A DNA stretch of 64,000 nucleotides from Promethearchaeota archaeon. Lineage in GTDB: Archaea; Asgardarchaeota; Lokiarchaeia; Sigyniarchaeales; SOKP01. Made by a program: the position numbers and the translations under genes. Below are positions 47,721 to 51,914 of this stretch, in pieces. Numbering within the stretch: the stretch's first letter is position 1; each line of letters starts with the position of its first letter. Where the stretch lies: contig RDOE01000003.1 of assembly GCA_011364975.1 (NCBI GenBank), positions 14,565-78,564 of the forward strand, in the 5' to 3' direction. Below the pieces are notes generated by a model. That model made no database searches and was not told the DNA's origin. It was given only the letters and a program-made list of their open reading frames with translations.

Positions 47721-48620
47721 ATGAAAAAGTTAGAAAAACTTCAAAATGTAATCACTGCATTGATTACTCCTTTTAATGAGGATTATTCACTAGATGTAGA
47801 TAAATATAGAGAATTTATTCGCTTTCAGATTGAAAATGGTTGTCAACCATTAACCATGGGCACTACTGGAGAGTCAGCTACCCTTTCTCACGAGGAACAT
47901 CATCAAGCAATAGACATTACTGTTGATGAGGCAAAAAAGTCAGGAAAAGATCCATTTGTATTAGCTGGAGCAGGAAGTAATTCTACTAAAGAATCTATTT
48001 CGTTATGTCAGTATGCTGAAAAAGCTGGGGCAGACGGTCTTCTAGTTGTCACACCTTATTATAATAAACCAGCACAACATTCTCTAATTGATCATTATAG
48101 TGCCCTGGCAGATGCAGTATCTTTGCCCATTATCATATACAACGTTCCCGGTCGAACTGGGTGTAACATTGAACCCGAAACAGTCTCTAAATTGGCTAAT
48201 TCCAAAGATAATATTGTTGGTATTAAATGTGCAAGTGGAAATATTGATCAGATCACTAGATATTTTAAATTATGCCCCGAAGATTTTATTGTTCTGAGTG
48301 GTGATGATGTTCTTACTTACCATATAATGGCTCTTGGAGGAAAAGGTGTAATCAGTGTTGCATCAAATATTATGCCTGTTAAATTATTTGAATTTACTTC
48401 TAGTATGCTGGATGGAAATTGGGGAAAAGCCAGGAAAATGCAATTAGAATTGTATGATTTATTCAAGATATTATTTATAGAAACCAATCCTGGTCCCGTT
48501 AAATATGCGGCAGAACTCATGGGACTTATGAATAAGAGAATGCGCTTACCTTTAACACCTCCCTTAGAACAAAGTCAAAATAAAATTAAGGATGTACTTA
48601 TAAATTTAAAATTAATCTAA
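47721..48620 (+). CDS. dapA: 4-hydroxy-tetrahydrodipicolinate synthase
   Basis: TALITPF, GTTGES, PYYNKP, YNVPGRT, GIK and ETNP.PVK. Confidence 0.96.
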   Translation: MKKLEKLQNVITALITPFNEDYSLDVDKYREFIRFQIENGCQPLTMGTTGESATLSHEEHHQAIDITVDEAKKSGKDPFVLAGAGSNSTKESISLCQYAEKAGADGLLVVTPYYNKPAQHSLIDHYSALADAVSLPIIIYNVPGRTGCNIEPETVSKLANSKDNIVGIKCASGNIDQITRYFKLCPEDFIVLSGDDVLTYHIMALGGKGVISVASNIMPVKLFEFTSSMLDGNWGKARKMQLELYDLFKILFIETNPGPVKYAAELMGLMNKRMRLPLTPPLEQSQNKIKDVLINLKLI

Positions 48621-48644: not shown

Positions 48645-49466
48645 TTGATTAAATTATTAATTTTTGGTCCAACGGGTTCTATGGGAAGATTGATTACGGA
48701 ATTAGCCTTAAAAGATAACGAAATTCAGATAGTTGCTGTATGTGATATTAATAATGTGGGAACTACTTTACAATCACTAATTGCTGTTGAAGATAAGAAT
48801 AAATTAATAATCGAAGATGTTAATAACCTTCAACAAATAATTGAAAAGACAAAACCTGAAGTTGCAGTTGATTTCACTATTGCGAAAGCAACTGAAAAGA
48901 ATTGCATGATATGCGTAGAGAACGGAGTAAGATGCATAATAGGTACAACTGCACTCACGGATGAATTTTTAAAAAAATTTAGTGATTTAGTTAAAAAAAA
49001 TAATGCTCCTGCTGTTATATCTCCCAATATGGCCACGGGTGTAAATTTAATATTTAAAGTGGCAGGGATCTTAGCACAATATTTAAGTGATTGGGATATT
49101 GAAATAATTGAAGCTCATCATAAACGAAAACTAGATTCTCCTAGTGGTACTGCTTTGAAGATTGGTAAAATCATTGCTGAATCTCTCGGTAAAAGTTTAG
49201 AGACCGTTGCCAAATTTGGAAGGAATAAGGGACTCAATAAAAGAGAAGTAGGCGCTAAGAATGAGATTGGATTTCATGCAATTCGGGGGGGAGATATTGT
49301 GGGGGATCACACAATTTTATATGCTGGGCCAGGAGAAAGGATAGAATTAAAACATCAAGCTCATAGTCGGATGTGTTTCGCAGAAGGAGCAATTAAAGCT
49401 ATAAAGTTTATTGTAAATGCTAAAGAAAACAAAATTTATAATACTAATGAAATCTTAGGTCTATAA
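48645..49466 (+). CDS. dapB: 4-hydroxy-tetrahydrodipicolinate reductase
   Basis: G.MG, DFT, GTT, EAHH..K.DSPSGTA, R.GDIVGDH and ERIEL.H.A.SR. Confidence 0.96.
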   Translation: MIKLLIFGPTGSMGRLITELALKDNEIQIVAVCDINNVGTTLQSLIAVEDKNKLIIEDVNNLQQIIEKTKPEVAVDFTIAKATEKNCMICVENGVRCIIGTTALTDEFLKKFSDLVKKNNAPAVISPNMATGVNLIFKVAGILAQYLSDWDIEIIEAHHKRKLDSPSGTALKIGKIIAESLGKSLETVAKFGRNKGLNKREVGAKNEIGFHAIRGGDIVGDHTILYAGPGERIELKHQAHSRMCFAEGAIKAIKFIVNAKENKIYNTNEILGL

Positions 49467-49505
49467 ATTTCCATTCCTTTTTTAACTATCCTCATTTTTA
49501 AAATA

Positions 49506-49644
49506 GAGATAAAATTATAAAGATTTCAGAGCAGATCAGTATTATCATTAATCCAGTGATACCAGATTTCATTACGCCAACTCTTCATTTAACTACGTAA
49601 AGGGTATCCAAGCCTCACATAGTTCACTTTTATAATTTTATCTC
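49506..49644. repeat. 16-bp perfect inverted repeat enclosing the candidate sRNA
   Basis: GAGATAAAATTATAAA (49506-49521) and TTTATAATTTTATCTC (49629-49644). Confidence 0.85.
49523..49626 (-). ncRNA. Candidate box C/D sRNA with an extra 5' hairpin
   Basis: Minus strand: hairpin AACUAUGUGAGG/CUUUACGUAGUU, C box AUGAAGA (49588-49582), D' AUGA (49572-49569), 8-bp stem AAUCUGGU/ACUGGAUU, C' AUGAUAA (49548-49542), D CUGA (49529-49526); G-U pairs favour the minus strand. Confidence 0.6.
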
Positions 49645-49698
49645 ATATAATTAAAAGCGATACTTTGTTATAACCTTTTTCCACAGAAAAAAATAAGG

Positions 49699-51015
49699 TT
49701 ATCCTAAATGCTTTGGAATAGATTGACCTTCTAATAAATTTTCCAAAGTTTCTGCTTTTCGAATTTTAAACACGGATTTGTTATTAATTAATAATTCACC
49801 AGGGCGAGGTCTTGAATTATAGGAACTTGCCATAGCAAAACCATACGCACCTGCATCAAGAATTGCCAATATATCCCCTTCTTCTAATTTTGGGAGCATT
49901 CTTTTTCTTCCTAAGATGTCTCCTGATTCACAAATTGGTCCTGCTATATCATATTCTATAATATCTTCCCTTCCCTGCTTATTACAAAGTTCGATATGAT
50001 GATAGGAACCATACATTGTTGGACGGATTAACGTATTAAAGCCTGCATCTATACCAGCAAATAATTTAAACCCGTTATTTTTTATAGTATTAATTTGAGT
50101 TAAAATAATAGTAGATTCTGCACATAAAAATCTCCCCGGCTCAATTTTGAATGTTGGAGTACCAATAACGCCTGTCTCAACGATTTCTTTAAAAGGTCTA
50201 ATTACCATATCTCTATAAATATCTATATCTAAAGGCTCTTCTTCAGGTTTATACGGAATTCCTAATCCACCTCCGAAATCAACAAATTCAAACTTAATAT
50301 CTAAGGAAGATGCTAGAGTTTTAACTATGGAAAGGTAATTTTCTGCTGCTTTTTCAAAATCCTTCGGATTGATAATACCAGAGCCTATATGTTGATGAAT
50401 TCCAAACTTTTTAAATCCTGCATTTTGAGCTAACTTATATGCATCTAATACTTGATCTTCTAAAATTCCAAACTTTATTTCCTTTCCCGCAGTAATGGTA
50501 TGTGCATGATGCCCCGCTCCAAATTCGGGATTAATTCGAAATGATATAATATTTTTTTGTTTACCTAATTTATTATGAACTTTGATTAATCTATCTAATT
50601 GGCTTACACTATCTAAATTGATTATGATATTATTATTTACTGCAAATTCAAAATCTTTATTAGTAAACATATTTCCTGTATAAAGAATACTTTTGGGGTC
50701 TACCCCTACTTTTAAACAAGCAAAGATTTCGCCTTGAGAAGTACAATCATAACCACTTCCTTCAGATTTTAAAATCTTCAGAATTGCTAAGTTTGAATTA
50801 GCTTTTACTGCATAATGAATTTGATTATTTTTATATTCTGTATCTAATAAGTTTTTTAATTCTCTATAACGCTTTCTTATTATATGCTCATCAGTAATAT
50901 AGATTGGCGTTCCATATTGTTCTGCTAATTCTAAAGTATTCATATCAGCAAAATATAAAACACCATCTCTATAATCCAAACCTTTATTCCTTAACCATTC
51001 TTTATATTCCGTCAA
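49699..51015 (-). CDS. lysA: Diaminopimelate decarboxylase
   Basis: YGTP.Y, YAVKAN, KFG, HIGS, DFGGG, EPGR, GPICESGD, GAYG and YNSRPRP. Confidence 0.97.
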   Translation of the reverse strand: MTEYKEWLRNKGLDYRDGVLYFADMNTLELAEQYGTPIYITDEHIIRKRYRELKNLLDTEYKNNQIHYAVKANSNLAILKILKSEGSGYDCTSQGEIFACLKVGVDPKSILYTGNMFTNKDFEFAVNNNIIINLDSVSQLDRLIKVHNKLGKQKNIISFRINPEFGAGHHAHTITAGKEIKFGILEDQVLDAYKLAQNAGFKKFGIHQHIGSGIINPKDFEKAAENYLSIVKTLASSLDIKFEFVDFGGGLGIPYKPEEEPLDIDIYRDMVIRPFKEIVETGVIGTPTFKIEPGRFLCAESTIILTQINTIKNNGFKLFAGIDAGFNTLIRPTMYGSYHHIELCNKQGREDIIEYDIAGPICESGDILGRKRMLPKLEEGDILAILDAGAYGFAMASSYNSRPRPGELLINNKSVFKIRKAETLENLLEGQSIPKHLG

Positions 51016-51029
51016 CTCTCACCTTGAAT

Positions 51030-51914
51030 TTATAACTTTATTTCATCAATCGTGCCTCTAAACACTCTTGTAGCAGGACCTTCCATAAAAACAGTTTCTC
51101 CTGTGTATGTAATGATTAAATCGCCACCATCATTATGTACAGTTACAGATTGATCTTTTTTGAACATTCCAGTGATAGAACCAGCAACTACTGCAGCACA
51201 CGTACCAGTGCCACATGAATTTGTGATACCAACACCTCGTTCAAATACTCTCAGTGTAGCTTCATTTTGAGATTGAACTTTTACAAATTCAACATTTATT
51301 TTTTTTGGAAACATGGAATTTGAACTAATAGTAGCACCATAACGATTCAATTCTTCATTGTTTGGAAGATTTTCTGTAAATATGATCGCATGAGGATTTC
51401 CCATAGATACTGCGGTAAACTTAAATATCTTATCTATAGCTACAATTGTTTCATTTACACATTTATCATTCAAACCTTCATTAATTACAGGTATTTCATC
51501 ACAGGATAATATAGGGGCACCCATGTCAATCTTAACAGATTCCACAATATCATCCATTACTTTTAATTCCGCATTAACAATCCGTTTTAAGGTCTCAACT
51601 TCGATCTTAAGCTTTTTACAAATATCATTCTCGTATATGTATTTAGAGAAACATCGAATGCCATTACCACACATTTCTGCTTCTGACCCATCTGGATTAA
51701 ATATCCTCATACTTAAATCTTTTTCTTTAGCAGGGCAAACTAATATCAATCCATCCGCCCCAATAGAAAAGTGCGGTTGACATAATATTTTTGCTAAATT
51801 TCCCATTTTATTTTCTGGTATTTTCCATTTCAGATTATTAATTAGGATATAATCGTTACCAAGCCCATGAAACTTCTCAAAATCAACATTTTGTAAAAAA
51901 TAATCATTTACCAA
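51030..51914 (-). CDS. dapF: Diaminopimelate epimerase
   Basis: KFHGLGNDY, NPDGSEAEMCGNG.RC, SMGNPH and ERGVG.T.SCGTG; TTG start behind GGAGTGAT. Confidence 0.97.
   Translation of the reverse strand: MVNDYFLQNVDFEKFHGLGNDYILINNLKWKIPENKMGNLAKILCQPHFSIGADGLILVCPAKEKDLSMRIFNPDGSEAEMCGNGIRCFSKYIYENDICKKLKIEVETLKRIVNAELKVMDDIVESVKIDMGAPILSCDEIPVINEGLNDKCVNETIVAIDKIFKFTAVSMGNPHAIIFTENLPNNEELNRYGATISSNSMFPKKINVEFVKVQSQNEATLRVFERGVGITNSCGTGTCAAVVAGSITGMFKKDQSVTVHNDGGDLIITYTGETVFMEGPATRVFRGTIDEIKL

Follow-up and report, generated by a model that had tools for sequence, protein, structure and literature searches.

Locus and Features of the RNA Element

The DNA analysed here (the window) is a stretch of 64,000 nucleotides (nt) from a Promethearchaeota archaeon (contig RDOE01000003.1 of assembly GCA_011364975.1). 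On its minus strand, between positions 49506 and 49644, lies an element that is rather probably an independently transcribed gene for a ≈140-nt box C/D-type guide RNA, predicted to target helix 34 of the 16S ribosomal RNA (rRNA). The element is set between two convergent units of lysine biosynthesis genes, dapA (47721–48620) and dapB (48645–49466) on the plus strand and dapF (51030–51914) and lysA (49699–51015) on the minus strand. The stop codon of lysA is found 54 nt upstream of the element, on the same strand.

An earlier note on this DNA, made from the sequence letters, had described a set of stems and boxes in a given order on the minus strand, and every piece of it was found at 49506–49644. 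The features used below are as follows, with the type of evidence in brackets.

49506–49644, minus strand: the element as a whole, 139 nt from arm to arm (137–160 nt in relatives).
49668–49680, minus strand: promoter, an A-rich AAAAAGG resembling a transcription factor B recognition element (BRE) and then TTATAA as the TATA box, together spanning -36 to -24 relative to the first RNA base.
49629–49644, minus strand: 5' arm of the terminal stem P1, GAGAUAAAAUUAUAAA, 16 nt, of which the first G (49644) is the putative transcription start (sequence, covariation).
49591–49624, minus strand: P2, a 12-bp hairpin with G-U pairs, whose 10-nt loop (49603–49612) carries GGAUACC (covariation).
49582–49588, minus strand: box C variant AUGAAGA, the bulged strand of kink-turn (k-turn) 1 (conservation).
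49573–49581, minus strand: D' spacer GUUGGCGUA, 9 nt, pairing internally (P3b) with part of the D guide (alignment).
49569–49572, minus strand: box D' variant AUGA, the non-bulged strand of k-turn 2 (conservation).
49550–49568, minus strand: P4, an 8-bp internal hairpin that is the C-stem of k-turn 2 (covariation).
49542–49548, minus strand: box C' variant AUGAUAA, preceded by a purine (R) as bulge base, the bulged strand of k-turn 2 (conservation).
49530–49541, minus strand: D guide UACUGAUCUGCU, 12 nt, with the core ACUGAUCUGC invariant or nearly so (conservation, 16S pairing).
49526–49529, minus strand: box D CUGA, the non-bulged strand of k-turn 1 (conservation).
49506–49521, minus strand: 3' arm of P1, UUUAUAAUUUUAUCUC, a perfect complement of the 5' arm (sequence, covariation).
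49500–49505, minus strand: pyrimidine-rich stretch with a T run directly past the stem, a likely transcription stop (82 sequences).

Secondary Structure and Covariation

Folding of the minus strand with ViennaRNA gave the listed helices together with the further pairing between boxes C and D (AGAGU/GCUCU) that the earlier note had proposed. The minimum free energy was -36.1 kcal/mol (z = -3.79), a value equalled by one of 200 shuffled sequences. Folding energy alone does not pick the strand, because the plus strand folds well too (z = -4.36).

A MAFFT alignment of 30 sequences showed the named structure to be 95.6% paired, with 16 pairs changed on both sides; none of 500 shuffles reached this, and sliding the partners against each other let the pairing fall to 37–49%. 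A second alignment comprised 100 model-aligned matches, 75 of them distinct. Among these 75 sequences 94.2% of the cells are paired and 30 of the 45 pairs have changed on both sides, again with none of 500 shuffles reaching the observed values, and the covariation in related genomes that the earlier note had named as a check is therefore present. This alignment was fitted to the model and is thus biased, and related genomes are not independent samples; the result from MAFFT alone agrees with it.

Compensatory changes are found in all four helices, including the 16-bp terminal stem. P1 is 98.1% paired with changes on both sides in 12 of its 16 pairs, and the same holds for 10 of the 12 pairs of P2 and 6 of the 8 pairs of P4. 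The loop of P4 varies in length and carries an insertion of 14–16 nt in genus g18. The direction of the imperfect pairs could also be used to assign the strand. Cells with G-U and cells with A-C, read on the minus strand, occur in the following ratios.

P1: 22 G-U to 1 A-C.
P2: 50 G-U to 1 A-C.
P3a: 31 G-U to 3 A-C.
P3b: 40 G-U to 0 A-C.
P4: 34 G-U to 6 A-C.

Since G-U cells far outnumber A-C cells, the RNA is on the minus strand. Its overall architecture, as shown by the covariation, is a three-way junction in which the 16-bp P1 encloses P2 and the C/D core. It appears almost certain that a real gene for a structured RNA lies here.

Copy Number and Distribution

The source assembly (3.74 Mb in 200 contigs, 99% complete) contains one full-length copy of the RNA according to BLAST, the 44 other matches being short, A/T-rich and of at most 33.7 bits. 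A covariance model likewise found one locus in this genome, where the minus strand scores 144.8 bits and the plus strand 28.1. Among 61 related genomes searched with BLAST, the entire block is present at 75–83% identity in 29 genomes of the same genus. MAFFT alignments showed that the conservation begins and ends at the tips of the arms, while the flanks are not conserved.

Covariance model R1, run on 151 genomes of the order, identified the RNA in 106, and every one of these belongs to one family. Listed by family, the matches were 105/131 for f1, 0/14 for f2, 0/1 for f3 and 0/4 for f4. Other families of the order and class gave 0/19 at E ≤ 0.01, and in 5 genomes no match was seen at E ≤ 10. 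The model missed a homolog in f3 that was later recovered by a pattern search. In genus g19 of f1 the model did not find the RNA in any of the 4 genomes.

An exact-pattern scan of 185,579 species genomes returned 88 loci. These are mostly labelled Promethearchaeota or Promethearchaeia and include the isolates CR_4 and Loki_b32, in line with the Asgard host that the earlier note had assumed and placing it with the Loki-type archaea. Some odd labels ('uncultured archaeon', other candidate phyla and one Nanopelagicaceae) were taken as those of the submitters.

The gene order around the RNA is often retained. In 12 of 16 loci from other genera, as in the source genome, lysA lies directly upstream on the same strand; the exceptions are L084, L088 (with dapF in place of lysA), L096 and L098. 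Four further loci were left out of this count.

Additional partial copies were seen in some genomes. In several genomes of the genus a second copy ≈1.4 kb away comprises only D', P4, C', the D guide, box D and the 3' arm (L028:3067–3117 in G017, L037:2009–2068 in G021, G028:C46:3266–3316 and G153:C107:2622–2731), and looks like a duplication remnant. G073 has a paralog 372 nt upstream of its main copy (L082:2629–2742) that consists of P2 and the C/D core without P1; its guide has one extra U, and the main copy of G073 has CUAA instead of box D. The second copy in G074 (L101:3584–3716) lacks both P1 and P2.

Promoter, Transcript Ends and the Terminal Stem

To compare the region upstream of the RNA, 80 distinct sequences of the family were anchored at the base with which the 5' arm opens. 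Positions -34 to -32 are A in at least 90% of the sequences, and positions -29 to -24 read W-T-A-A-A-A, with no G at all and at most 1% C. Position -1 is a pyrimidine in 99% and position +1 a G in 90% of the sequences. In the source genome the motif AAAAAGG-TTATAA lies 18 nt past the lysA stop codon. Such spacing is that of an archaeal BRE/TATA promoter with initiator, which puts the start of transcription at window position 49644. The primary transcript is thus predicted to be ≈139–145 nt long, and would probably include both arms and be made from its own promoter. The 24 sequencing runs listed in a search for RNA reads of the locus were all of DNA or presumed to be so.

The earlier note had suggested an RNA of roughly 105 nt processed from the 3' untranslated region (UTR) of dapF-lysA. 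This does not agree with the conserved promoter of the RNA itself, with the pyrimidine at -1 and G at +1 placed at the arm, or with the covariation of the arms in 12 of 16 pairs. There is no need to invoke processing out of the lysA 3' UTR. A promoter inside the 5' arm was rejected as well, as the start would then fall in the covarying P2 and the real TATA box is located 24–29 nt upstream of the arm.

Past the 3' arm, positions +2 to +5 are T in 59–68% of 82 sequences and never G. A run of at least four T occurs within 14 nt of the stem in 32 of the 82, and the 3' arm itself holds a run of four. The T-rich stretch after the stem is a likely transcription stop.

P1 is more conserved in sequence than pairing demands. 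Its U-rich 3' arm may double as part of the stop signal, with the A-rich 5' arm following by complementarity. The stem probably shields both ends of the RNA.

Words resembling the 5' arm are found elsewhere in the window. A 16-mer with two differences from it lies at 51029–51044 (minus strand), exactly at the dapF-lysA junction, and with up to two mismatches the arm has 5 matches in the window versus 0.98 expected. This recurring word may simply be an A/T-rich promoter-like word.

Boxes, Kink-Turns and Protein Partners

The four boxes were examined in the 75 distinct sequences. Box C has an invariant A-U-G-A and an invariant G in the sixth position (75/75), and its fifth position varies (A in 70, U in 3, G in 1 and C in 1), as expected for position 3b of a k-turn. 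The GA of box D' and the following AA that opens P4 are invariant (75/75). So is the A-U-G-A of box C' (75/75), after which the 3b base is U in 58, A in 14 and G in 3 sequences. Box D reads C in 75, U in 75, G in 74 and A in 75 of the 75, a single sequence having A for G. The putative 3b and 3n positions vary freely. The near-invariance of GA in boxes C, D', C' and D fits two k-turns, and the kink-turn geometry and box C/D character described in the earlier note are in this respect borne out.

The geometry at C'/D' is that of a textbook k-turn, with the covarying P4, a three-base bulge R-A-U, tandem G-A/A-G pairs and then U-U. At C/D, Watson-Crick pairs (A-U, G-C) come after the GA pairs. Papers are cited here and below for the excerpts that deal with the point in question, and one of them states that Watson-Crick pairs after the GA pairs predict folding of the k-turn only with protein (PMC4382518). 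Box C follows hairpin P2 directly, and 3–7 variable bases separate box D from P1. With no ordinary C-stem at C/D, k-turn 1 would have to form at the three-way junction. Taken together, we find it highly probable that the element encodes a k-turn RNA of the C/D type.

Genes for the proteins of such particles are present in the source genome. Those for fibrillarin and Nop5 are adjacent on contig C130, and there are two genes of the L7Ae family. A strict four-box C/D pattern gave 0 matches in the source genome. Mesophiles have small guide sets (PMC7994747), and a relaxed pattern, which returned a single clear canonical box C/D small RNA (sRNA) from this genome, fits with that. This sRNA (contig C87:2630–2705) has the order AUGACGA, 12 nt, CUGA, loop, UGAUGA, 12 nt, CUGA and a 4-bp terminal stem. 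Directly upstream of it lies a stretch like the 5' arm of P1.

Searches against Rfam at the gathering threshold gave no match in the whole window. At E ≤ 10 the matches at the locus were snR77, SNORD107, sR44, U6 and others, all far under threshold. Three other identities were considered and set aside. No 5S rRNA match was found at the locus at E ≤ 10. A box H/ACA sRNA does not fit, as P2 is a continuous 12-bp stem without a pocket and there is no conserved ANA triplet after either hairpin. Nor is a riboswitch indicated, with no match to the lysine riboswitch or to another such family in Rfam.

The 5S model stayed under its 38-bit cut-off in the source genome and in five relatives, two of them single-contig; the best matches had 21.7–28.9 bits and two genomes gave none. 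Weak 5S candidates are located on contig C95:21101–21211 of the source genome and in the relatives G110, G112 and G073 (loci L102–L105). The 5S rRNA of the family is either unusually divergent or often unassembled.

The D Guide and Its Predicted Target

The spacing from box C' to box D is exactly 12 nt. Archaeal C/D guides are 10–12 nt long and follow the +5 rule (PMC7994747). As the 16S sequence of the source genome is cut off after model position 828, the complete 16S of a same-genus genome (G008) was used instead. Positions 1154–1164 of this 16S can pair with the D guide over 11 contiguous positions, including one G-U, and the guide version of the source genome would form 12 pairs with two G-U. 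An exact copy of the 18-nt target stretch is found in 27 family genomes with this part assembled. In the source genome the 16S (contig C78) and the 23S (contig C137, 3354 nt) are found on separate contigs.

Counted upstream from box D, the fifth base of the guide lies opposite G1158 of the G008 sequence, a nucleotide of the decoding centre. The distance from this G to the C that corresponds to E. coli C1402, further downstream, is 205 nt. We take G1158 to be equivalent to E. coli 1197, and presumably to yeast Gm1428 by a count on the yeast 18S rRNA from Cm1639. Yeast Gm1428 (snR56) lies in helix 34 and has the counterparts human Gm1490 and Arabidopsis Gm1431 (PMC2794176), U25, snR56 and AtsnoR19 being grouped for this site (PMC3511168). 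The Dictyostelium counterpart is Gm1506 (PMC8817022). In the excerpted table of PMC11542601, the columns that give archaeal and bacterial sites for other rows are empty at this site.

Targets in transfer RNA (tRNA) were also searched for. With the 15 tRNAs found in the source genome by ARAGORN, which are an incomplete set, the D guide forms no more than 7 contiguous pairs. Downstream of the 16S in G008 there is an apparent intron-containing tRNA (L106:2990–3200) with a D-arm match to the guide, which is weighed below. On the pairing and its register, we regard it as moderately probable that the RNA guides 2'-O-methylation of the helix-34 G.

The Same Guide in Other Asgard Families

We searched 400 genomes of the phylum with the motif TGA-N5-CTGAYCTGC-N-CTGA. 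It was present in 108 of them, and the reversed control in none of the 400. Outside f1 the motif was found in f3 (1/1), f19 (3/19), f21 (6/6) and f29 (1/1).

The f3 sequence is the same type of RNA, with a P2 hairpin carrying the GGAUACCC loop and without a long P1. In f19 the motif belongs to a ≈95-nt C/D RNA with a 7-bp terminal stem and an internal hairpin, and a second guide of 12 nt in this RNA pairs with 16S 1000–1008, on the opposite strand of the helix-34 region. The f21 RNA is a ≈85-nt C/D RNA that has the same antisense element in the D' position. Its guide has C where that of f1 has U, which turns the lone G-U into G-C and gives ten Watson-Crick pairs with the 16S. Despite the D' position, the +5 rule marks the same G. 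The register kept in three architectures, together with one change that improves the pairing, is the best support for this element being a working guide for that G.

The D' Spacer and the Loop of P2

The D' spacer pairs within the RNA. P3b, formed with the 5' half of the D guide, is 95.7% paired (G-C, G-U/A-U, C-G and A-U/G-U), and its compatible changes are one-sided only. The inner three pairs of P3a hold in g1 and g18, with an A-U to U-A covariation, and do not hold in g22, g23 and g29. As a result of the P3 pairing the free RNA would be a long irregular hairpin, which must open for a target.

Two 16S matches of the D' spacer were considered. Together with box C it can form 11 pairs with 16S 489–499, after the 530 loop. 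An A-to-U change in g18, G016 and G036 breaks this match, and the 16S stretch is identical in the family genomes in which it is assembled, including these three. The match was rejected because the A-to-U change is compensated only inside the RNA. The second, between GUUGGCR of the spacer and 16S 1014–1020, has 7 pairs including two G-U and is no better than 12 other matches of 7–8 pairs. The G-to-A variants of the spacer suit the internal P3b and not the rRNA. As judged from these comparisons, the D' spacer is probably not a methylation guide.

The P2 loop GGAUACC is identical in 74 of the 74 sequences that have letters there, and is kept in the f3 homolog and in the paralog of G073 without P1. 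It is the Watson-Crick complement of 16S 1032–1038 (G008), ≈125 nt upstream of the target. In the 16S fold as we read it, these positions fall where the 5' strand of helix 34 reaches its distal end and helix 35 starts. Shuffled loops found a 16S complement in 5.7% of cases over the whole 16S and in 1.1% within 990–1200, a window picked after the match had been seen.

The 16S sequence at this place is GGUAUCC in most of f2 as well as in each of the 20 family genomes that have the region; the remaining Asgard families that matched show GGUGUCC instead. Both versions can pair with the loop, which is consistent with an interaction and does not discriminate. The difference between GGUAUCC and GGUGUCC before helix 35 marks lineages, GGUAUCC being the version perfectly complementary to the loop. 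Mimicry of the 790 loop of 16S helix 24 was also considered and rejected, since the covariation sets a 10-nt loop and helix 24 has one of 9 nt. An accessory pairing of the P2 loop with the 16S is possible, though less likely than not.

The earlier note had called for complements of both spacers and of the hairpin loop in rRNA and tRNA. This stood for the D guide, with its 11 pairs to helix 34, and failed for the D' spacer, whose match is not maintained; the complement of the loop is suggestive.

Discussion

If the RNA works as a C/D guide, L7Ae would bind both k-turns, and Nop5 and fibrillarin would assemble there. The 12-nt guide between C' and D would pair with the 3' strand of 16S helix 34, and fibrillarin would 2'-O-methylate the G that faces the guide's fifth nucleotide, counted upstream from box D; this G is G1158 in G008. 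The 9-nt D' spacer seems too short and too variable to guide, and would be paired with the D guide in the free RNA. The P2 loop may add a second short pairing with the 16S near helix 34, and this is the weakest step. P1 would probably protect both ends of the RNA, its U-rich 3' arm aiding termination.

Several observations weigh against this interpretation. The C/D matches of Rfam at the locus are sub-threshold, the best being snR77 with 17.3 bits versus a cut-off of 50. Archaeal C/D guides are usually 50–70 nt (PMC7994747), and the 139 nt seen here are twice the usual archaeal size; that the architecture is atypical for archaea had already been pointed out in the earlier note and holds true. 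Box C departs from RUGAUGA, and the A in its fifth position gives a Watson-Crick 3b-3n pair. Next to boxes C and D there is no ordinary C-stem, and the flanking bases do not covary. With 9 nt the D' spacer falls short of 12, and its final three bases are variable. Three usual archaeal C/D features are accordingly missing, namely the size, the adjoining terminal stem and a second 12-nt spacer.

Further points concern the target. The 3' half of the 16S is unassembled in the source genome, so that the target is known from relatives only. The match alone is modest, as 109 of 3000 shuffled guides (3.6%) do equally well in 16S plus 23S. The D guide also has a 10-bp match to the D-arm of the tRNA in the spacer after the 16S of G008, and part of the guide is paired within the free RNA (P3a and P3b).

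A different role for the same type of particle would be that of a k-turn ribonucleoprotein (RNP) acting mainly as a chaperone of rRNA folding or processing, like U3 or U14, which holds both sides of helix 34 and for which methylation is absent or secondary. The D guide (16S 1154–1164) and the P2 loop (1032–1038) do map to the same region of the 16S, and only 1.1% of shuffled loops find a partner within 990–1200. The strands between the k-turns can pair, as in the 3' domain of U3. The f19 relative is moreover a double guide with its other guide on the opposite strand of helix 34 (16S 1000–1008), and such roles of double guides are discussed in PMC7994747. However, the window of the loop test was chosen post hoc and 5.7% of the shuffles match over the whole 16S. 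The invariant loop shows no covariation with the 16S, as GGUAUCC and GGUGUCC both pair, and the parts of the RNA outside the arms have no complementarity of at least 8 to the 1.5 kb upstream of the 16S. The exact 12-nt spacing of the guide also suits methylation, and we consider a mainly chaperoning RNP unlikely.

The RNA might also be a k-turn RNA of another type, bound by L7Ae without Nop5 and fibrillarin, with a function unrelated to rRNA modification. In size, in its three-way junction and in its non-standard box C it differs from archaeal C/D sRNAs, and the Rfam matches far below threshold point the same way. Yet C/D RNAs of ordinary appearance in other Asgard families carry this guide in the identical +5 register, and the C'-to-D spacing is the canonical 12 nt, which makes a role outside rRNA modification quite improbable.

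In the source genome and in 12 of 16 loci from other genera the RNA follows lysA immediately and shares its strand. This position could alternatively indicate a cis element of the lysine genes, that is a 3' UTR structure, a bidirectional terminator or a regulator of dapA-dapB and dapF-lysA, and a stem followed by a T run could end transcription. A cis element is very unlikely given the own promoter and the retention of the RNA in the 4 of 16 loci without lysA upstream (L084, L088, L096 and L098). In addition, the invariant boxes and guide far exceed the needs of a terminator, and no riboswitch of Rfam matches. A miniature inverted-repeat transposable element (MITE) or other inverted repeat at the DNA level, which the perfect 16-bp terminal inverted repeats might suggest and for which the earlier note had named dispersed copies with target-site duplications as the sign, can practically be dismissed, as there is a single full-length copy in a 3.7-Mb, 99%-complete genome, the same syntenic place is kept across genera, the covarying helices have a one-strand G-U bias and no target-site duplication is evident at the locus.

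We therefore return to a C/D-type guide RNA for helix 34 as the preferred reading. The literature searched contained no account of Asgard box C/D guide RNAs. The same literature gave no archaeal guide for the helix-34 G that is methylated in human, yeast, plants and Dictyostelium. The RNA is a testable candidate: both it and its predicted nucleotide are specified, and simpler relatives of it are available for comparison from other Asgard lineages. As a departure from the archaeal size rule, it would mean that a guide RNA can carry extra domains and a three-way-junction k-turn, which were thought to be lacking in archaea. Whether by common descent or by convergence, a shared target bears on how much of the eukaryotic small nucleolar RNA (snoRNA) set predates eukaryotes. 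The interest is bounded in that this is one predicted guide RNA.

A bolder proposal, which we hold to be rather doubtful, is that the RNA is the Asgard counterpart of a U25/snR56 guide as old as the last common ancestor of eukaryotes (LECA), combining the guide with a second antisense hairpin and a long terminal stem so as to clamp both sides of helix 34, and acting also as an assembly chaperone. If true, eukaryotic snoRNAs of the multi-domain, processing type would have a precedent in archaea.

Comparison With Known Systems

The RNA shares with archaeal box C/D sRNAs the box order C, D', C', D, the invariant GA and the 12-nt guide before box D. Its guide also finds its complement at a conserved site of the rRNA in the +5 register, and the protein genes are present. 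Unlike in these sRNAs, C'/D' is here a full k-turn closed by an 8-bp hairpin and not a k-loop, and a 5' hairpin and a 16-bp stem form a three-way junction in the place of the short stem. The box C sequence AUGAAGA and the 9-nt D' spacer, probably not a guide, also set it apart.

A k-turn at a three-way junction corresponds to the 'k-junction' of Lilley and co-workers. The bulged strand of k-turn 1 runs here from P2 into box C, and the third helix, P1, interrupts the non-bulged strand. This likeness is purely topological.

With U25, snR56 and AtsnoR19 (Rfam clan CL00049) the RNA has in common that the predicted target is the presumably equivalent helix-34 G, as placed in part by yeast and E. 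coli numbering, and that there is a single functional guide. No similarity to them in sequence or model was detected, neither family being among the Rfam matches at E ≤ 10 at the locus.

U3 has C'/D and B/C k-turns joined by a helix, and a 5' antisense domain. The RNA resembles it in having two k-turns split by strands that can pair, a hairpin that caps the inner k-turn and a 5' element with a conserved single-stranded sequence. A search for U3-like 5' complementarity in the 16S and the 1.5 kb upstream of it (source genome and G008) gave runs of at least 8 only for the arms and non-conserved stretches. Unlike in U3, the 5' hairpin is placed within the terminal stem and a canonical 12-nt methylation guide is present, and the likeness to U3 is architectural only.

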